A DNA stretch of 12,065 nucleotides from the IMG/VR virus record IMGVR_UViG_2579778856_000001. One strand, written 5' to 3'. The stretch comes from a virus. Lineage: Duplodnaviria; Heunggongvirae; Uroviricota; Caudoviricetes. The position numbers and the translations under genes were made by a program. Below, one piece after another: positions 2,848-9,798 of this stretch (positions within the stretch are counted from its first letter, which is position 1; every line of letters begins with the position of its first letter). Under the pieces are notes generated by a model that saw only the letters and a list, made by a program, of their open reading frames with translations, was not told the DNA's origin and searched no databases.

Positions 2848-3315
2848 ATGAAAGAGATAAAATCGAAAACCAGTTCTGCGAAAAAAACGCTGGTTCCTTG
2901 GTTCGAAACTATGGGGAAACAGGTTGGTTTATCACAAGAAACGATATCAGCAGTGTTAAAGGAGCAGCGTTTACGGATACGTAAGCTTAACTACGCATCT
3001 GCATATACAGTGTCCAATATTCTCATACAGGATTGCGGCGGGGCCGATGACATGTGGAGCAACTACGCTAAACTGGCGCTTATCCTTGAGCGTTGTAAAT
3101 ACATTCCCTGCGGGAGCAGGGCCTGTGCATATTGTTCTACCGCTCAGCAATTACATTATCAGGGGGTGGATGTAACCGGGGAATACGCTTTATATCAGTT
3201 GCCTGAGTTATTTTTAGATTTTTTAGAAACAAACGACAAAAATTCCTCTTATCATTGGGATTACAATAAGTTAGTTGAGCGGCATGAAGATGCTCAGGCG
3301 AGGTCATTCGGGTAA
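2848..3315 (+). CDS. Hypothetical 155-aa protein with an N-terminal HTH-like segment and a Cys cluster
   Basis: Track ORF 2800-3315. The internal ATG 2848 follows the alpA stop (2844-2846) by 1 nt and has GGGAGA 6 nt upstream, so alpA-coupled translation is preferred. MGKQVGLSQETISAVLKEQRL looks like a helix-turn-helix. CKYIPCGSRACAYC is a possible metal site. No family recognised. Confidence 0.65.
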   Translation: MKEIKSKTSSAKKTLVPWFETMGKQVGLSQETISAVLKEQRLRIRKLNYASAYTVSNILIQDCGGADDMWSNYAKLALILERCKYIPCGSRACAYCSTAQQLHYQGVDVTGEYALYQLPELFLDFLETNDKNSSYHWDYNKLVERHEDAQARSFG

Positions 3316-3346: not shown

Positions 3347-3381
3347 ATTACCCTGCCACTGCATTTTGGTGGCAGGGTAAT
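3347..3381. other. Perfect 13-bp stem-loop between the 155-aa and 284-aa genes
   Basis: ATTACCCTGCCAC (3347-3359) pairs with GTGGCAGGGTAAT (3369-3381) around a 9-nt loop. No T-run follows on the plus strand, so it is not a canonical terminator. The arm and loop contain CCACTGCATTTT, which recurs at 4335-4346. Confidence 0.6.
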
Positions 3382-3402: not shown

Positions 3403-4257
3403 ATGAACGATTCTTATTACTTCAGAACATCTGACCCGGATTACATTCGTCACGCACCGTCAATGCTTGAGATTTTAAGTAAAGCATTCCCCACTATTAT
3501 TACCCAGCAGGAAAGTGAGTATGAACTGCAGCGTCTTAACCATTTACTAAATAAACTGAAAGGCAGCAATCGCTGCTACAACATCATTGCTCAAAAACTA
3601 AGGCAGTGCAGAAACGGATCTCCATGCAACAGTCTTATATGCCCGCATTGCCAGCGGGAACGCATTCTGGCGCAACTGGCTATGTTGCATGTCTTGCCGG
3701 GGAATTCAGCAGAATACGTGGGAGTGGTCCTGTTTTTCAACAAGGATACGCAAACTCCGCCGCCATGGAAGAACATTGGGGCGCTCAGGGCGCAAATCGG
3801 TCGTTATAAGCAGAGGATAAGCCGGGTACTTAACCGCCTGGGGTACGCCGGTCCGGCCACAGGCACCTTCAGTATGATGCGACATATGCCTGATGGCCCA
3901 GAAGAGCGTATTTTCTGGGTTCCACAGTTGTGTTTGTTCCTGCCCAATGACAGTACGTTGATTAAGGGGCTAAAAGCGCATATGTCGCGAAGTGGTGGGG
4001 CATTCATTGATGCATCGACGCTTAACACACCAGTGATCGTGCTCAGGTATAAAGATCCCGCGAGACTGATTTCATGCGCCCTGAATCCAGTCTGGCACAC
4101 AGCAGATTACACACTGACTGATAAAGACGCTCTTGTTAAGTCAAGAATGGAGCTACTGAAAGGCCGGACACTGTTAAAAAGTCTGCTTACCCTGGACTCA
4201 CTCGGAACAGGTGTCGTTTCTTTTTCGTTTGGGCAACCCCCAGGGAAAGTGCACTGA
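3403..4257 (+). CDS. Hypothetical 284-aa protein with a C-x5-C-x4-C-P-x-C zinc-ribbon-like motif
   Basis: Track ORF with ATG start and AGGAA 8 nt upstream. The motif QCRNGSPCNSLICPHCQRERILAQ falls at about aa 68-90. It recalls the PCGxCxxCR zinc motif at the N-terminus of some rolling-circle Rep proteins, but no HUH histidines are seen at the expected place (FWVPQLCLFLPN). The function call is therefore open. Confidence 0.7.
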   Translation: MNDSYYFRTSDPDYIRHAPSMLEILSKAFPTIITQQESEYELQRLNHLLNKLKGSNRCYNIIAQKLRQCRNGSPCNSLICPHCQRERILAQLAMLHVLPGNSAEYVGVVLFFNKDTQTPPPWKNIGALRAQIGRYKQRISRVLNRLGYAGPATGTFSMMRHMPDGPEERIFWVPQLCLFLPNDSTLIKGLKAHMSRSGGAFIDASTLNTPVIVLRYKDPARLISCALNPVWHTADYTLTDKDALVKSRMELLKGRTLLKSLLTLDSLGTGVVSFSFGQPPGKVH

Positions 4258-4270
4258 TTTACCGGTAATG

Positions 4271-4401
4271 CAGCAACTGCAATGCACTTTTGCTGTTGAT
4301 TAAATTGCAGTGGAACGACGAATAACAGCGGCAACCACTGCATTTTCGTTGTTGTAAAACTGCAAAGCTTGCCAGTGATTTTGATGGCGCTGATGCACTT
4401 T
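4271..4401. repeat. Iteron/operator-like cluster of ACTGCA(A/T) and ATGCACTTT motifs with two hairpins
   Basis: ACTGCAA at 4276-4282, inverted copy TTGCAGT at 4305-4311, ACTGCAT at 4337-4343, ACTGCAA at 4359-4365. ATGCACTTT at 4282-4290 and 4393-4401. Hairpin CAGCAA/TTGCTG at 4271-4276/4290-4295. Hairpin TGCAGTGG/CCACTGCA at 4306-4313/4335-4342, followed by TTTT. Confidence 0.5.
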
Positions 4402-4439
4402 AACATTCCAACTGTCTCGATTTTAACGCAACCGTCTGT

Positions 4440-4833
4440 TTTCTGCAGGGGCTCACGGATGCCTCTGCACACCCGATCCTTACCATCAACTGACGAGTTA
4501 GCGCATCTGTGAGGGCTTTCTGTGTTTCTGTCAGTGAATATTCTACACACAATGGGGGGAGCGGTCAGCGAGCACCATTGCCATTGAGCGCAACGGAGAG
4601 CTTGGGGACATGCAGCACTACGGAGGCTTCATCTCCTTCTCATGTCATTAAACGATACGGCGAACGAGCGCAGCGAGTGAGGGAAGGCGTCAGCCTGAAC
4701 AGGGGGAAAGATTTGCGACCGGAGTGGAGCAAATCATGGGCGGAGCCCATCCTCGCGACTGGGGTTTTGACTTTCGAATTGCCCAGCGTTGAGTTTGGTT
4801 AATGTAGTGAGACGAGGATGCTGAGAGGGGACC
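4440..4833 (+). other. ORF-poor, more GC-rich leader upstream of the polymerase-like gene; candidate structured RNA or 5' UTR
   Basis: Only alternative-start or antisense ORFs with implausible composition cover it. Local hairpins: TGCAGGGGC/GCCTCTGCA (4444-4452/4461-4469, one G-U pair) and ATGGGC-gga-GCCCAT (4736-4750). Micro-tandems: TTTCTGTG/TTTCTGTC (4517-4532) and CCATTG x2 (4575-4586). Direct repeats GAGCGCA, CAGCGAG and GCGACYGG. No known RNA family recognised. Confidence 0.3.
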
Positions 4834-6231
4834 GTGAGTACTGAAAAGGATTATCCAGTGAAGATCCCTAAGTGGGTTTATGACCGTATTACTGAAATAA
4901 CGGATTATGTCGTGGGGGATACGCAATGGGCTGTTACCCGGCGGCAGACAGTACGGTGGTTCCTGGCTCACATATGGCTGGAAACAGACGATGATGGCTG
5001 GACTATATGCACTGTCCGGGATATCCGTAGCAGCTATGCCAGTCTCCTGGGACAGTGTGAAATTAGTTACCAGGGGGAGTGCTTTATGTCCACGCTAACT
5101 GATTTCCTGCCGACACTTTCGGATATTGAATTTCGTGCAGGAAAAGCGAGCAAAGACCCGGAAAAGCGTAGAGCCAGTGCATGGCGGTTCAACCCCCTGC
5201 TGCCTGTGTGTGATGAGTCTGCCAGGGGTAAGTTAAATCTGGTTGACTTGGATACTGGTGAGTCTGTTAGTTTTAGAGCTCTGCTTCAGGGGAACGGGAA
5301 AGCTCCTGGGCATGCGATAGATGTAGAGAAACGCCAGACGGCCCTAAAACAAACGGAAAAGGACTTCTTGGCCAAAGTTGGGCGGGGGCGCATGAGTATA
5401 CAGTTTGTGAAGGAATTGCGTAGCCGTGAGCCGGATCACTATTACCGCGCAGGAATACGCAGCCTTAACCATCTCTACAATGGCAGGATTGAGGGACAAT
5501 ATGTCACTTACGACCATCATTATCGTCTGACGTTTGGAGGGCGGTATTATGATCAAGCTTTCCAGAATCTGCCCAATGAGTTCAAAGCTAAATTTCGGAC
5601 CGGGTTACTCAACTATGACATCGAAGCGTGCAATCTGGCCTGTCTGAACCATCTGTTCAGACAGTATGACGTCGATTATCGTGTGAAGTCATCGATATAT
5701 AAAACCATGATGGAACATACCGGGCTGACCCGTAAACAGTGCAAACAGATGGTCCATACCACCACCTACAGAATTGGGCGTGTGACTATTGGTGTTAATG
5801 ATGGCCTTGGGGCAAAAGTGTATGGATGGTGCGGTAACAGCAAAAAAAAGGCGCTAAAGATTTTGCGTTGGTGGAACCGTTATATCAGTCCATTGAAATC
5901 TGCGCTTGAGTCATTGCTGGAACGTGTGCATGGCGCACACCGCAAGAGTTGTTCATCACCGCGTAACTATCACAGGTACGCTAATGAAGTCGGATTAATA
6001 CTGGATCTTAATAGTGAGGTGTATCAGCGTGAAAAGACTCACCATCATCAATATGCGCGGAATAAGGCACTGTTGGCGTTTATGATCTGTGGTGTGGAGC
6101 AGGCGTATATCCGTGAGGTTGTCAGTATGAACCCTGGTCGTGTCTGCATGCTGGATCATGATGGGGTAGTGGCAACGGGCGCGCTTTCACTACCGGACTG
6201 GCGTGGTTTCACGATGAAAGTGAAGGACTAG
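4834..6231 (+). CDS. Compact family-A DNA polymerase-like protein (palm/fingers motifs present, no exonuclease domain); putative island replication polymerase/primase
   Basis: GTG start directly after an in-frame TGA (4822-4824), with GAGGGG at 4825-4830. Ordered PolA motifs: TFGGRYYDQAFQNLP (aa 233-247, compare TGRLSSxxPNLQNIP); LLNYDIEACNLACLNHL (aa 258-274, compare DYSQIELRxxAHL, motif A); RKQCKQMVHTTTYRIG (aa 300-315, exact R-x3-K-x7-Y O-helix spacing, motif B); VCMLDHDGVVA (aa 437-447, compare QVHDE, motif C). Inter-motif spacings resemble those of Pol I. Confidence 0.75.
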   Translation: MSTEKDYPVKIPKWVYDRITEITDYVVGDTQWAVTRRQTVRWFLAHIWLETDDDGWTICTVRDIRSSYASLLGQCEISYQGECFMSTLTDFLPTLSDIEFRAGKASKDPEKRRASAWRFNPLLPVCDESARGKLNLVDLDTGESVSFRALLQGNGKAPGHAIDVEKRQTALKQTEKDFLAKVGRGRMSIQFVKELRSREPDHYYRAGIRSLNHLYNGRIEGQYVTYDHHYRLTFGGRYYDQAFQNLPNEFKAKFRTGLLNYDIEACNLACLNHLFRQYDVDYRVKSSIYKTMMEHTGLTRKQCKQMVHTTTYRIGRVTIGVNDGLGAKVYGWCGNSKKKALKILRWWNRYISPLKSALESLLERVHGAHRKSCSSPRNYHRYANEVGLILDLNSEVYQREKTHHHQYARNKALLAFMICGVEQAYIREVVSMNPGRVCMLDHDGVVATGALSLPDWRGFTMKVKD

Positions 6232-7227: not shown

Positions 7228-9798
7228 ATGGATGAGCTGCTAACCCTTGGCTGCATTGCTTTATTCTTCGCACTGGTGGTGGTTCCCATCCTCGCGATTA
7301 TCGCGCTCAGCCGCAGCACGGCTGTTCGTTCTGAGCTGGCGACCCTGCGTCGCCGGGTGGAGGTGCTTGAGCAGCGCGGTGTGACTGAAGCACCCGCCAC
7401 AGTGGTAACAACTGTGCCGCAGAGTGTTTCGCAGATGGTTGTGCCTGTTGAAACGTCTTCGCCTGCGGTTAACATCGTGCTGTCGGAGCCTGTGGCTGAT
7501 GTCACGCCTGAGTCCGTTGACCCCTGGCGTCCACAACCGAAGCCGCAAAACGAGGCGCTACCCACACCAGCGGTCGAACAATCTTCCGCTTTTGGTGGGG
7601 TGATGTCGTCCCTGGTGCGCTGGTTTATGCAGGGCAACCCGCTGGCAAAGCTGGGTATTCTGCTTCTCTTCCTTGGCTTCTCCTTCCTGCTGCGTTATAC
7701 GGTTGAACACTCCCTGTTCCCGCTTGAGCTACGTCTGGTGGCGACTTCGCTGTTTGCGATTGCCCTGCTGGTAGTGGGCTGGCGATTGCGGCATAAACAG
7801 CTGGTTTATGCGCTGATCATACAGGGTGGAGCTACGGGGACGCTCTATCTCACCGTTTTTGGCGCATTCTGGCTCTGGCAGATGCTGCCGATGACGCTGG
7901 CGTTTGCATTACTGGTGGCGATTTGCGCGGCGAGCGTGGGACTGGCGATTATGCAAAAAGCGCTCAGCCTCGCGATGCTGGCAAGTATCGGTGGCTATCT
8001 GGCACCGCTGTTGCTTTCCACCGGCGGCGGTAGTCATGTGGCGCTCTTCTCTTTCTACCTTCTGCTTTCCGTCGGTATTCTCGCCATCAGCATCTGGCAA
8101 CACTGGCGCGAGCTTAATCTGCTTGGCCTGTTATTTACCTTTGGTATCGGCGGTCTTTGGGGACTCGACGGCTATCGATCAGAGTATTACCTGAGCAGTC
8201 AGCTTTTCCTGATAGCCAATACGATCATTTTTGGTGTGCTGAGCGTGGCGCTATCGCTACGAGCACAGGAGAAAGGTAAGCAGATTATTGATGGCGTGCT
8301 GTTGTTTGCATCGCCGCTGGTCGGTTTTGGCATGCAGTACGCCATAACCCGGCATATGGAATATGGTCCGGCGCTTAGCGCGCTGGGTTACGGCGGTTTC
8401 TATCTGGCGTTAGCATGGCTTGCATTGCGTCGCTATCCCTCTTTGGGGAGGCCGCTGGTGCTGGCGGCGCTGGCGCTGGGTGGGGCATTTACCACGCTCG
8501 CTATCCCACTGGCGCTTTCGGCCCGCTGGACGGCGATGGCCTGGGCGCTGGAAGGTCTCGGCATCCTCTGGCTGGGCGTGCAACAGCAGCAGCGGCGTAT
8601 GAGCTATAGCGGCACTGCGCTGCTGGTGCTGGCAGTGTGCAGCGCGCTGTGGGCGCAGATGAACGGGATGAGCGCGCTTTCTCTGGTGCTAATCTTTGCC
8701 GTACTCAGCCTCAGCTGGCTGGCTGCCGCCTGGCTGTGGCGCAATATTCAGTTGCAGGGTAGTTGGGTTCTGTTGGCTGGCGGTTTGATCTTCTGGATAA
8801 TCGCGCTCATTGGGGCATCGCAACTGGTGCTGAAAAAGGACTCGCTGGTGCTGTCTGGCGTGCTGGCGTTAATGGCGATATCGGTCTGGGGCTGGCGGAT
8901 TGTCTCTGGTCGTCTGGCCTGGTGGGAGCTGGATGTCAGCAAATGGTTGCTGTGGCCGACGATGCTGGTGATGCTGCTGTCTCAAATTTCACAACATGAG
9001 ATTTTTGCTGCGGGCTGGCAGAATCTGGCCTGGTGTCTGGCGTTACCCGCTGCGGGGGCATTGCTCTGGCGTGATGCTGAGACGTTGCCGCCGCGCCTCT
9101 CCAGACTGGCGCACCTTTCACTCTTCTGGATGATTCTGCTCGCGCTGGCGGCGGAGCTATTCTGGTTTGCGCAAGATCTGCCATGGGGCATGGCGGCGTG
9201 GGGCTCCGGCCTGATGATGGCCGCGGGGGGCCTGCTCATCTTTCTCGTTCATGAGGCGGTTCATCGTCAGCTATGGCCATTCCGAAGCTGGCCCGCACTC
9301 TACGCTTCTCAGGCGATGATACCGGTAGCTGCGGTATTGGTTGTTCTGCTAGTACTGACGAATTTGCAGGATGGCGTAGTTTATCGCCAGACCTGGCTGC
9401 CGCTGGTGAATCCACTGGAGGAGGGGGCCGCTTTTGCGCTACTGGGACTCATTGTATTTTATCGCGTTTCGCAGCGCTTTTTCCCGGTGCAGATTTCGGT
9501 ATGCCGTCCCTGGCCGCTCATTGCACTGCTGGCGCTTAGCTTCTGGTGGCTGAATGGCATCCTGCTGCGCGCATTGGCCTGGTACGGCGAAGTGCCCTGG
9601 AGCGCGGAAACACTGTGGCATTCGCGGCTGATTCAGACCTGTTTTGCCCTGTTCTGGATGCTGGCGGCATTAGTGGTGATGCTACGTGCGACCCGGCGTT
9701 GCTCACGTCGCGAATGGCTTTGTGGATCCGTATTGTTAGGGATTGTTATTGTGAAACTGATGTTGGTAGACAGTGCGCGTGGCGGCGGCCTGGCATGA
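7228..9798 (+). CDS. DUF2339-type polytopic inner-membrane protein (856 aa), apparently lacking its natural C-terminus
   Basis: Track ORF 7186-9798 (TTG start). ATG 7228 with GGTGGA upstream gives MDELLTLGCIALFFALVVVPILAIIAL. The layout is one TM, then a coiled LATLRRRVEVLEQRG segment, then a Pro/Val-rich linker, then more than 20 hydrophobic helices. This is the architecture I recall for DUF2339. It ends ...KLMLVDSARGGGLA, and the TGA stop is supplied at the sequence-character break (9796). Confidence 0.8.
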   Translation: MDELLTLGCIALFFALVVVPILAIIALSRSTAVRSELATLRRRVEVLEQRGVTEAPATVVTTVPQSVSQMVVPVETSSPAVNIVLSEPVADVTPESVDPWRPQPKPQNEALPTPAVEQSSAFGGVMSSLVRWFMQGNPLAKLGILLLFLGFSFLLRYTVEHSLFPLELRLVATSLFAIALLVVGWRLRHKQLVYALIIQGGATGTLYLTVFGAFWLWQMLPMTLAFALLVAICAASVGLAIMQKALSLAMLASIGGYLAPLLLSTGGGSHVALFSFYLLLSVGILAISIWQHWRELNLLGLLFTFGIGGLWGLDGYRSEYYLSSQLFLIANTIIFGVLSVALSLRAQEKGKQIIDGVLLFASPLVGFGMQYAITRHMEYGPALSALGYGGFYLALAWLALRRYPSLGRPLVLAALALGGAFTTLAIPLALSARWTAMAWALEGLGILWLGVQQQQRRMSYSGTALLVLAVCSALWAQMNGMSALSLVLIFAVLSLSWLAAAWLWRNIQLQGSWVLLAGGLIFWIIALIGASQLVLKKDSLVLSGVLALMAISVWGWRIVSGRLAWWELDVSKWLLWPTMLVMLLSQISQHEIFAAGWQNLAWCLALPAAGALLWRDAETLPPRLSRLAHLSLFWMILLALAAELFWFAQDLPWGMAAWGSGLMMAAGGLLIFLVHEAVHRQLWPFRSWPALYASQAMIPVAAVLVVLLVLTNLQDGVVYRQTWLPLVNPLEEGAAFALLGLIVFYRVSQRFFPVQISVCRPWPLIALLALSFWWLNGILLRALAWYGEVPWSAETLWHSRLIQTCFALFWMLAALVVMLRATRRCSRREWLCGSVLLGIVIVKLMLVDSARGGGLA

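Follow-up and report, generated by a model that had tools for sequence, protein, structure and literature searches.

The window, by which we mean the whole stretch of 12,065 nucleotides analysed, belongs to an island family whose core comprises DUF2787, orphan genes, a Tyr recombinase and AlpA, here an excisionase-type protein of 65 aa, and whose cargo of retrons, restriction-modification, SIR2 and other defence genes is variable. Among complete E. coli genomes, about 11% contain such an island, and some of the copies, in O25b:H4/ST131 strains, are 100% identical. The conserved core has no evident helicase or primase, and in it a polymerase gene (orf465) and the gap directly upstream of it form a module beside AlpA and the integrase. 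The related lineages represent ten or more enterobacterial genera, and all of them keep a gap of 500-700 nt at the same place. The locus is organized as follows:

3403-4257, + strand: orf284, an orphan protein with an invariant four-Cys motif
4258-4833: the gap, 576 bp, flanked by orf284 and the GTG start of orf465 (4834)
4246-4401: module 1, half-site array of six TGCAnTTT in strictly alternating orientation
4402-4543: spacer of fixed length, with the short conserved words AACTGT, GTAAC, GATGC and GAGTTAGCG
4544-4750, + strand: module 2 (the core), TACACAC and then four hairpins with compensatory changes and G-U wobbles in purine-rich blocks
4544-4553, + strand: TACACACAAT, common to both island subfamilies, including one without orf284
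4550-4580, + strand: hairpin HB1, stem CAATGG/CCATTG, 6 pairs, 100% paired
4587-4660: inter-block spacer, variable (identity 0.15-0.27), with large indels among lineages
4661-4681, + strand: block 2, a symmetric 21-nt hairpin motif, CGAACGAGCG-C-AGCGAGTGAG
4685-4696, + strand: hairpin H0, AGGC-GTCA-GCCT, 4 pairs, 97% paired, compensatory change in 2; weak
4710-4735, + strand: hairpin H1, GATTTGC-(12-nt loop)-GCAAATC, 7 pairs, 100% paired
4736-4750, + strand: hairpin H2, ATGGGC-GGA-GCCCAT, with a second GCGNAGC mini-hairpin at 4740-4746
4751-4833, + strand: 3' part, poorly conserved (identity 0.22-0.42), containing the ribosome-binding region
4834-6231, + strand: orf465, a small protein of the family A polymerase / T7-RNAP-superfamily fold, always directly downstream of the region

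Coding potential and conservation of the gap

The gap is a genuine non-coding control region. In agreement with the initial annotation, which saw no credible ORF in these 576 bp, no ORF within 4258-4833 is conserved among lineages. The program-made ORFs that overlap it (4509-4802 on the + strand, 97 aa; 4107-4550 and 4690-4971 on the - strand) have no Pfam match, and the single PHROG match, to a - strand ORF (E 5e-4), covers residues 99-131, by arithmetic about 4158-4256, a segment outside the gap and antisense to orf284; inside the gap there was no PHROG match. A decayed protein-coding gene had also been envisaged, and the 97-aa ORF, whose equivalent is annotated as a gene in one public contig, could be taken as its remnant. 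This reading is refuted, and we give it practically no chance: the phase between conserved blocks varies by lineage, stops occur in all three + frames in five lineages and in every - frame in nearly all lineages, Pfam and PHROG are silent within the gap, and the blocks contain long runs of consecutive invariant columns, which leave no room for third-position variation.

The bins 4543-4572 (mean pairwise identity 0.90, 23 of 30 columns invariant) and 4663-4692 (0.86, 22 of 30) are the most conserved 30-nt bins of the orf284-gap-orf465 stretch, against an identity of 0.81 in the highest-scoring coding bin, which lies at the active site of the polymerase; the comparison covered seven lineages whose polymerases are about 60% identical to that of the window. 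The CCATTGCCATTG duplication (4575-4586), in which CCATTG of the HB1 stem recurs at 4581-4586, and the direct repeats GAGCGCA and CAGCGAG, all listed previously, are real and part of the ultraconserved blocks. A hairpin at 4444-4469, a tandem at 4517-4532 and a mini-ORF at 4818-4844, the last running beyond the gap, likewise exist but are confined to the window's own clade. The 5' third was described as AT-richer and is modestly so (GC about 0.46 vs 0.55), and no clear AT-rich unwinding element was seen in the region. H105-type strains carry an insertion of the IS3 family (ISEc52) at about 4475.

Half-site array and orf284

The 5' portion had been described as having the look of an iteron-type origin or a multi-site operator, on the basis of four ACTGCAW words, which are indeed found at 4276(+), 4305(-), 4337(+) and 4359(+) (the word is not enriched over the whole window, with 6 found and 4.5 expected), and of two ATGCACTTT copies, recovered at 4282 and 4393 (0.15 expected). 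The array is better described by alternating TGCAnTTT half-sites at 4246(-), 4283(+), 4302(-), 4339(+), 4357(-) and 4394(+), six of the eight present in the whole window, for which 3.35 are expected. They build three 45-bp units (4246-4290, 4302-4346 and 4357-4401) with a period of 56/55 bp, the first overlapping the stop codon of orf284. The half-sites lie at -298, -261, -242, -205, -187 and -150 from the core in both the window and Cedecea, with subsets at the same offsets (at most 2 nt off) in Edaphovirga, Budvicia and Yersinia loci and in Logan/metagenome contigs, and the array-to-core offset of 150 nt is constant across lineages to within about 2 nt. The origin or operator look is thereby supported and made more precise, as a position-locked, conserved array of inverted half-sites, but "iteron" is the wrong word for it, since the 8-bp half-sites alternate in orientation instead of forming the tandem direct repeats of about 17-22 bp of iteron-type origins; a repeat search found no direct-repeat family with more than two copies.

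Homologues of orf284 (281-301 aa) lie directly upstream of the gap in every examined locus with a TGCA array and are missing from loci without one. Because of this co-occurrence, orf284 is the best candidate for a protein binding the half-sites. It matches nothing in Pfam and belongs to no known family of Rep proteins or helicases, a profile search added one further distant homologue only, and its AF2 model (pLDDT 48) is unusable. The island subfamily without orf284 has neither the array nor blocks 1 and 2 and keeps only TACACAyWAT and the first hairpin, so the blocks are not indispensable to the polymerase.

Core hairpins, the polymerase and the 21-nt motif

TACACA is present in every lineage except one (L011, TACTCA). 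A -10-like hexamer (CACAAT/CATAAT/CACTAT) lies inside the TACACACAAT motif, at whose 5' edge TTCTACACA (4541-4549) has one mismatch to a relaxed DnaA-box pattern, the only such degenerate word. The HB1 stem shows an A-U to U-A compensation (CAATGG/CCATTG vs CTATGG/CCATAG) and has equivalents in subfamily 2 (AATGGG/CCCATT) and in L011 (TATGGGGC/GCCCCATA); its apex (4559-4571, GA-GC-G[GTC]A-GC-GA) is a relative of the block 2 hairpin. For block 2 we propose a fold with the successive pairs C-G, (G-A, A-G), A-T, C-G, (G-A, A-G), G-C and C-G and a triloop G-N-A, that is, with two tandem G-A pairs and an apical GCGNAGC mini-hairpin at 4668-4674. The middle loop base is its sole freely variable position, and natural variants with deletions within block 2 exist (L020, L168).

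H1 is closed by G-C in 12 sequences, by A-U in 6. One pair of H2 is U-A in 8 sequences, U-G in 5 and G-U in 4, the wobble states being valid on the + strand only, and its apex GC-GNA-GC reads GGA in the window clade, GCA in L167 and L015, and GTA in L008. Taken together, the four hairpins are 97% paired, versus 28-38% in slid controls, with compensatory change in five pairs and a covariation score matched by 0 of 500 shuffles. The covariation also supports the hairpin already noticed at 4736-4750 (H2). The description of the 3' part as a structured leader is true for these local hairpins only, since over its full length it has no folding advantage over shuffles (z +0.81 for the + strand, z -0.75 for the - strand).

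Every hairpin could form equally in a + strand transcript of a 5' UTR. The gap might be an extended 5' leader through which the polymerase mRNA is regulated, with transcription starting at or near the -10-like CACAAT and the G-run, with the TGCA array as upstream operator and with hairpins and purine blocks of the leader RNA controlling elongation, stability or translation of orf465. The -10-like hexamer within the sole motif common to all lineages, the coding-sense hairpins with their G-U wobbles, a long additional hairpin directly upstream of the RBS in many lineages and a weak terminator-like site (4751-4764, plus T-run) in the window clade are all compatible with it, as are the -10-like pause elements and leader terminators of Q-type and P. 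aeruginosa AlpA regulation (PMC9371919). However, the hexamer has no -35 partner, and a sigma-70 promoter scan returned no + strand site, its lone - strand site (4568-4540) not being conserved. The P. aeruginosa antiterminator is larger than the AlpA found here, with DNA-contact residues at 128-142 (PMC9371919). The lack of a folding advantage over shuffles, the lack of an Rfam match, the perfect conservation of about 50 plus 35 largely unpaired nt, which is unusual for leaders, and the lack of coding-strand bias of the 21-nt motif in viral contigs (see below) also count against a leader, which we regard as possible but unlikely.

The gene downstream, previously called polymerase-like, encodes palm, fingers and thumb of Pol I type, in accordance with a family A polymerase / T7-RNAP-type fold. 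Its residues D262, R300, K304 and D443, assigned by eye to motifs A, B (Arg/Lys) and C, are invariant in 21 sequences, the catalytic Asp residues being intact, and the AF2 model suggests an N-terminal domain resembling a winged helix. Neither orf465 nor ten distant relatives have a Pfam match, and a profile search of PDB sequences gave nothing relevant. It is most likely a small, previously undescribed polymerase of enterobacterial defence islands. In Budvicia, a second paralog is likewise preceded by 831 nt of ORF-free, repeat-rich DNA.

A region that lies directly upstream of a polymerase-fold gene and is always linked to it, that has covarying local structure on the sense strand and that belongs to an island rich in defence cargo could, as the initial annotation suggested by analogy with retron/DRT systems, encode a non-coding RNA partner of the polymerase, which would act as scaffold or template. 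The searches brought this suggestion no positive support, and we judge it improbable: cmscan of the whole window against Rfam gave 0 matches at E <= 1, no retron-like flanking or long-range inverted repeats were seen, and the region has no global fold. Moreover, orf465 is not a reverse transcriptase (family A fold, no RT Pfam match), and the module sits in the conserved core by AlpA and the integrase, not in the variable defence cargo. The most conserved parts are short hairpins and unpaired purine tracts, and the inter-block spacer is hypervariable in length and sequence, so that no conserved template is apparent.

The mini-hairpin GCGNAGC / GCGNNAGC has a 2-bp stem with a G-A-closed triloop, and hairpins of this class are reported for the complementary-strand origin of G4, for ssiA of RSF1010 and for the hairpin promoters of the N4 vRNAP (Hirao 2026 review, PMC13037366). 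By sequence, GCGCAGC (4668-4674) and GCGGAGC (4740-4746) belong to this class and are predicted to fold likewise; GCGNAGC is not enriched over the whole window (6 found, 8.75 expected). The full 21-nt motif is present in at least 92 distinct viral 46-mers from contigs, where it caps long hairpins with variable stems. Five upstream bases that were not part of the query fit the fold (C 85%, A/G 80%, A 63%, G 55%, C 50%; background 24-27%), and most matches of an IMG/VR scan with GAGCGNAGCGAGTGAG are real, not chance. A scan with TACACAYWATGGGGGG gave 8 matches, which look like chance because the other blocks and an orf465 relative are missing from all of them. The viral-contig motif is mostly located outside same-strand ORFs of at least 100 aa and has no coding-strand bias, which argues for a role at the DNA level; in a T4-like phage, copies on both strands flank an AT-rich stretch. 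Identification with the complementary-strand origin of single-stranded phages was rejected, since this would place the motif on the coding-sense strand, as in only 15 of the 40 strongly biased loci. As a text string, the 21-nt double-G-A version with its fully fixed sequence did not turn up in the literature that could be searched.

Hairpins of this kind might also be promoter- or primase-like sites, read directly by the PolA/T7-RNAP-superfamily enzyme, which would start de novo on hairpins of single-stranded DNA as the N4 virion RNA polymerase does at its hairpin promoters. H2 (GGGC-GGA-GCCC) and block 2 are GNA-triloop hairpins, as are the mini-hairpins of the class to which N4 early promoters belong (PMC13037366), the predicted N-terminal domain of orf465 is winged-helix-like, and the orf465 family has N/S/C in place of the steric-gate Glu if, from our reading of the alignment, D262 corresponds to Klenow D705. 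On the other hand, the TGR..QNLP motif is nearer to DNA polymerases than to RNAPs, the H2 loops are not GNA in every lineage, and block 2 is absent where orf284 is absent. Furthermore, the motif occurs in many viral contigs, and a relative of the enzyme in none of the 120 loci retrieved, which favours a shared host factor. We consider a de novo start of this kind rather improbable.

A putative replication-initiation region and its parallels

Our analyses lead us to favour, at slightly less than an even chance, the reading of the gap as a cis-acting replication-initiation region of a pipolin-like island, whose replicase would be the downstream PolA-like protein. A sequence-specific protein, for which orf284 is the best candidate, would occupy the six half-sites, and the array, at its fixed distance of 150-298 nt from the core, may position strand opening or transcription. 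Once single-stranded, through displacement in rightward synthesis, as at ColE1 ssiA, or through local melting, the core + strand would fold into HB1, the 21-nt double-G-A mini-hairpin, H1 and H2. We infer that DNA, rather than RNA, is the active form, in which these hairpins may serve as single-strand initiation signals marking primer synthesis or primosome loading, the primer then being extended by the PolA-like enzyme. In favour of this reading are the conservation and layout of the region, the covarying hairpins, the spread of the 21-nt motif among viral contigs, the neighbouring polymerase fold, the Budvicia paralog and the pipolin-like island context. Against it are the want of a clear AT-rich unwinding element, the single degenerate DnaA-box-like word, the unenriched GCGNAGC, the deletions within block 2, the subfamily that lacks the blocks, and a core with no evident helicase or primase. 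If the reading is right, these islands would be replicating elements with a defined origin and mini-polymerase, which would help to explain their persistence and spread.

A bolder version, which we think unlikely although worth stating, is that orf465, as a minimal PolA/T7-RNAP-superfamily enzyme, itself recognizes the G-A mini-hairpins upstream of its gene when the DNA is single-stranded, and initiates there without a separate primase. In that case, the polymerase and its hairpin region would constitute a self-contained replication module, the islands would form a new class of defence islands with a family A equivalent of the pipolins' primer-independent PolB, and phages and mobile elements would widely share the 21-nt double-G-A hairpin as an initiation signal that is still without a name. 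The motif is in any case sharply defined, experimentally tractable, common to many viral contigs and similar to the core of a hairpin in the ColE1 origin region; if the replication-initiation reading is right, it could serve to mark replication starts in phage and island genomes.

Returning to the replication-initiation region, the closest parallels of its hairpins are the initiation signals of G4, RSF1010 (ssiA/ssiB) and N4, likewise GCGNAGC-type G-A-closed triloops in non-coding DNA, located at sites where synthesis on a single-stranded template starts (PMC13037366). The window has two such mini-hairpins and the related HB1 apex, and differs in the two tandem G-A steps and the fully fixed 21-nt sequence of block 2. 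This 21-nt version is not known to be linked to any primase.

In a ColE1-type plasmid (L171), positions 1207-1230 are identical to window 4661-4681 at 20 of 24 positions, with the core C-GA-GC-GNA-GC-GA-G on the RNA II-direction strand, adjoining a DnaA box and upstream of rop. A ColE1 49-mer is present in 2,067 plasmid records. We take the segment with the similar core to be ssiA, following the mapping of the 1980s. The n'-pas/ssiA is near a dnaA box (PMC3640518). Homology was rejected, given a local alignment score of 28 against 22.8 +/- 2.3 in shuffles (15 of 300 reach 28) and an nhmmer E of 3.8; RNA I and the other Rfam families are unmatched as well. The likeness is a structural resemblance only and statistically not significant, and as a possible PriA-type primosome assembly site block 2 has a hairpin core that resembles the ColE1 segment. 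Mimicry of oriT or plasmids was also discarded: when the core was compared with 72,556 plasmids by distant blastn, the sole matches were 100%-identical copies in two large E. coli records, with nothing divergent, and the same comparison with 50,697 phage records gave none. In layout, the origin of ColE1/pMB1 and the window share about 600 bp of non-coding DNA paired with a Pol I-type polymerase, a purine-rich hairpin on the strand expected to be displaced in rightward synthesis, and a DnaA-box-like word nearby. Unlike in ColE1, the polymerase is here encoded by the element, and a half-site array lies upstream.

In phage-inducible chromosomal islands and iteron plasmids, the origin repeats adjoin the rep gene. 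The window resembles them in having a repeat array directly 3' of a candidate initiator gene, within an AlpA-containing island module. It differs in its alternating inverted half-sites, which replace tandem direct iterons, in that orf284 is of no known Rep or helicase family, and in the PolA-like gene that takes the place of a primase-helicase.

Pipolins, finally, which are self-replicating defence islands, carry their own polymerase (PMC11551731). They share with the islands studied here DUF2787, orphan genes, a Tyr recombinase, an excisionase-type gene, variable defence cargo and an element-encoded DNA polymerase (PMC11551731). The paper mentions only "piPolB-less, pipolin-like islands", and when its main text was searched by terms, neither replication origins nor non-coding regions nor PolA came up (PMC11551731). 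No PolB was seen in the window or the examined related loci, and where pipolins have a piPolB gene, the polymerase here has a family A fold. Should the gap act in replication initiation as we suggest, the island would represent a family A parallel to pipolins.

Conservation and coding potential of the gap

The gap at 4258-4833, between orf284 (3403-4257) and orf465, is as the initial annotation had described it, and the words listed there are present where they had been placed. Related loci, drawn from GTDB genomes, from Logan, NCBI and JGI contigs and from metagenomes, fall into two island subfamilies. In subfamily 1 (the window, Cedecea, Edaphovirga, Yersinia, Serratia, Budvicia, Pectobacterium and others), an orf284-like gene is followed by 500-700 nt of ORF-free DNA and the polymerase gene. 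Subfamily 2 (L009 and L011-L014) lacks orf284, the TGCA array and blocks 1 and 2, and retains TACACAyWAT followed by a hairpin.

Features of the gap and its downstream neighbour
4246-4401, module 1, array of TGCAnTTT half-sites
4544-4750, module 2, the core
4550-4580, + strand, hairpin HB1
4661-4681, block 2, the 21-nt motif
4685-4696, + strand, hairpin H0
4710-4735, + strand, hairpin H1
4736-4750, + strand, hairpin H2
4834-6231, orf465, member of a very small unannotated family (~460 aa; family A polymerase / T7-RNAP fold)

Of the 30-nt bins in the 2.8-kb orf284-gap-orf465 alignment, the two best conserved both come from the gap: 4543-4572 has an identity of 0.90 with 23 of 30 columns invariant, and 4663-4692 one of 0.86 with 22 of 30. 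The top coding bin reaches 0.81. None of the ORFs called mechanically across the gap has a family match within it, and they are not conserved, since the distance between blocks shifts phase among lineages; stops occur in all three + strand frames in several lineages and in every - strand frame in nearly all. The earlier suggestion of a decayed gene was therefore rejected. The feature is real; it is non-coding and under strong selection.

Half-site array and core hairpins

The array consists of six half-sites of strictly alternating orientation, forming three 45-bp units, at offsets of -298, -261, -242, -205, -187 and -150 from the core; other lineages match these within 2 nt, with the least variation in the trio -205, -187 and -150. 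The invariant position of the array and its correlation with orf284 suggest that it may carry a nucleoprotein complex, held at a set distance from the core. In subfamily 2 (L009, L011, L012 and L014) a perfect 24-bp palindrome, TTTTCCATTTTTAAAAATGGAAAA, lies just after alpA and occupies the place of the array, which suggests a swapped DNA-binding specificity. Between orf155 and orf284, a perfect 10-bp hairpin at 3350-3378 (ACCCTGCCAC-TGCATTTTG-GTGGCAGGGT) displays a TGCATTTT half-site in its loop, and its 12-mer CCACTGCATTTT is an identical copy of 4335-4346. The position of orf155 (2848-3315) is held in several lineages by a second, distant orf284 paralog (L005 3559-4419, L008 3584-4504, L022 2585-3430), so that orf284-like genes form tandem pairs there, with 21-25% identity and a common four-Cys motif.

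Downstream of TACACAC, the core forms four + strand hairpins (HB1, H0, H1 and H2), in which 97% of cells pair, versus 28-38% with slid partners, across 18 distinct sequences. Compensatory change affects five pairs, and the covariation score was reached by none of 500 shuffles; HB1 equivalents with compensatory changes also occur in subfamily 2 and L011. One H2 pair varies between U-A, U-G and G-U, which identifies the + strand as the functional one. The structured leader proposed initially thus stands only for local hairpins and not for the region as a whole, which folds no better than shuffled sequence. Many lineages carry, in addition, a long GC-rich hairpin directly upstream of the polymerase RBS, with a conserved apex (GCGCC-N3-4-AAGCGC) and covarying stems; the window's clade lacks this hairpin.

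Long GC-rich hairpins upstream of the polymerase RBS
L005-L007, ~5900-5960
L015, ~4880-4930
L009, L012 and L014, ~130-200 nt downstream of TACACAT

Block 2 reads CGAACGAGCG-N-AGCGAGTGAG, the middle loop base being its sole variable position, and may fold as C-G, [G-A, A-G], A-T, C-G, [G-A, A-G], G-C, C-G with a G-N-A triloop. Its centre, GCGNAGC, belongs to the extraordinarily stable "mini-hairpin DNA" class; a second GCGNAGC lies inside H2, and HB1 has a closely related sequence at its apex. The 16-mer GAGCGNAGCGAGTGAG alone retrieved more than 120 loci in an IMG/VR scan. Chance was ruled out as the explanation of most of these matches, as the five unqueried upstream bases agree with the fold (C 85%, A/G 80%, A 63%, G 55% and C 50% of 92 distinct sequences). 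The motif often caps long hairpins whose stems differ from contig to contig; it shows no coding-strand bias, and only 23 of 123 viral occurrences lie within a same-strand ORF of at least 100 aa. The searchable literature neither names it nor gives it as text. As CGA[AG]CGAGCGNAGCGAGTGAG, a double-G-A mini-hairpin, it is widespread in viral contigs (IMG/VR loci L031-L150), mostly away from long ORFs, and a T4-like Enterobacter phage (L173, 583-740) carries copies on both strands flanking an AT-rich stretch. Among natural variants, deletions of 13 nt between short direct repeats inside block 2 (L020 ~4825, L168 ~340) and several substitutions there (L153) may mark decaying copies.

The PolA-like neighbour and the role of the region

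The GTG at 4834 is a plausible start for orf465, because homologs carry ATG at the same position; PGAP annotates a shorter, truncated 381-aa protein in ST131 genomes. The family comprises 78 clusters at 90% identity, all annotated "hypothetical" and, where the source is named, all from Enterobacterales. None of the 78 matches Pfam, which has no model for the family; when 1.84 billion representative proteins were searched exhaustively with a profile, no more than 70 relatives emerged, the distant ones likewise without a Pfam match. Each of the 50 listed Foldseek matches to the AF2 model (pLDDT 82) is a family A DNA polymerase, and the invariant D262, R300, K304 and D443, together with LTFGGRYYD..FQNLP, fit Pol I motifs A, B, C and TGR..QNIP, as assigned by eye. 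The label "polymerase-like" was therefore correct. By the same visual assignment the family does not conserve the steric-gate Glu of motif A, and the modelled N-terminal domain resembles a winged helix. This family and the 21-nt mini-hairpin motif are the more novel by-products of the analysis.

Budvicia L008 encodes a second, distant PolA-like paralog downstream of the first (483 aa, 8215-9666), preceded by 831 nt of ORF-free DNA (7384-8214) with two ~130-nt direct repeats (7470-7600, 7730-7860) plus an inverted partial copy (7918-7933). Mini-polymerases of this kind may thus generally be preceded by long regions that contain repeats. A fragment of a similar paralog occurs in L005.

The best-supported reading of the gap is a cis-acting initiation region for the element's own PolA-like enzyme, its most probable role being that of an origin or priming region. 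A protein-bound array would stand at a fixed distance from the hairpin cluster, single-strand hairpin signals would be clustered on the + strand, and initiation would serve the island's enzyme. The analysis shows the conservation and architecture of the region, the covariation of its hairpins and their strand, the class and distribution of the motif, and the fold of the polymerase; we infer that the region acts as DNA and not as RNA, that the island replicates, and which proteins would bind. The main rival is a regulatory leader RNA, which would fit the sense-strand position of the hairpins and the -10-like hexamer embedded in a motif common to the lineages; however, a promoter scan detected none on the + strand, and AlpA here is of the small excisionase type, not the larger antiterminator. 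The retron/DRT-like RNA partner of the polymerase raised initially is an unlikely alternative that gained no positive support.

Host islands and comparison with known systems

The gap is 100% identical in the chromosomes of many E. coli strains, including several O25b:H4/ST131 isolates, and a search of 5,426 complete E. coli genomes detected it in 585, with identities of ≥99% in 507 records and of 90-95% in 76. In strain O25b:H4 it lies within an island adjoining dhaR; the ST131 island corresponds to L001/L016 (NZ_CP015085 5149453-5172788). Its conserved core runs from an HTH gene, orphan genes, DUF2787, RadC and a Tyr recombinase to a divergent orphan gene, alpA, orf155, orf284, the gap and orf465, flanked on one side by a retron Ec67-type RT and an ABC-three-component system and on the other by IS-riddled, IS-degraded cargo (DUF2339, DUF3999). 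Among the cargo in the fetched flanks of related islands are genes for SIR2, type I R-M, OLD/UvrD, a DEAD-box helicase and CdiA. In H105-type strains ISEc52 (IS3-family, frameshifted; L003 2823-3992) is inserted at ~4475, in the spacer between array and core, splitting the region.

Block 2 resembles a pBR322 sequence downstream of ori, which we take to be the factor Y / n'-pas (ssiA) primosome assembly site of ColE1. The match covers 20 of 24 nt, with a common core C-GA-GC-GNA-GC-GA-G, and is not statistically significant; given this, and a mapping that is presumed, homology was not adopted and ColE1 serves as a structural analogy. The pBR322 49-mer is present in 2,067 plasmid records, most of them from small mobilizable plasmids; its copy in a ColRNAI-replicon plasmid occupies the RNA II-direction strand, adjoining a DnaA box, upstream of rop. 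According to reviews, Pol I extension exposes ssiA, which is located near a dnaA box (PMC3167613, PMC3640518). A review of mini-hairpin DNA, the class to which the GCGNAGC at the centre of block 2 belongs, discusses the G4 complementary-strand origin, RSF1010 ssiA and the N4 vRNAP promoters (PMC13037366).

The pipolin paper mentions piPolB-less, pipolin-like islands without further analysis (PMC11551731). The island core described here resembles pipolins in its DUF2787, orphan genes, Tyr recombinase, excisionase-type gene and variable defence cargo, but carries a family A-fold polymerase in place of piPolB.
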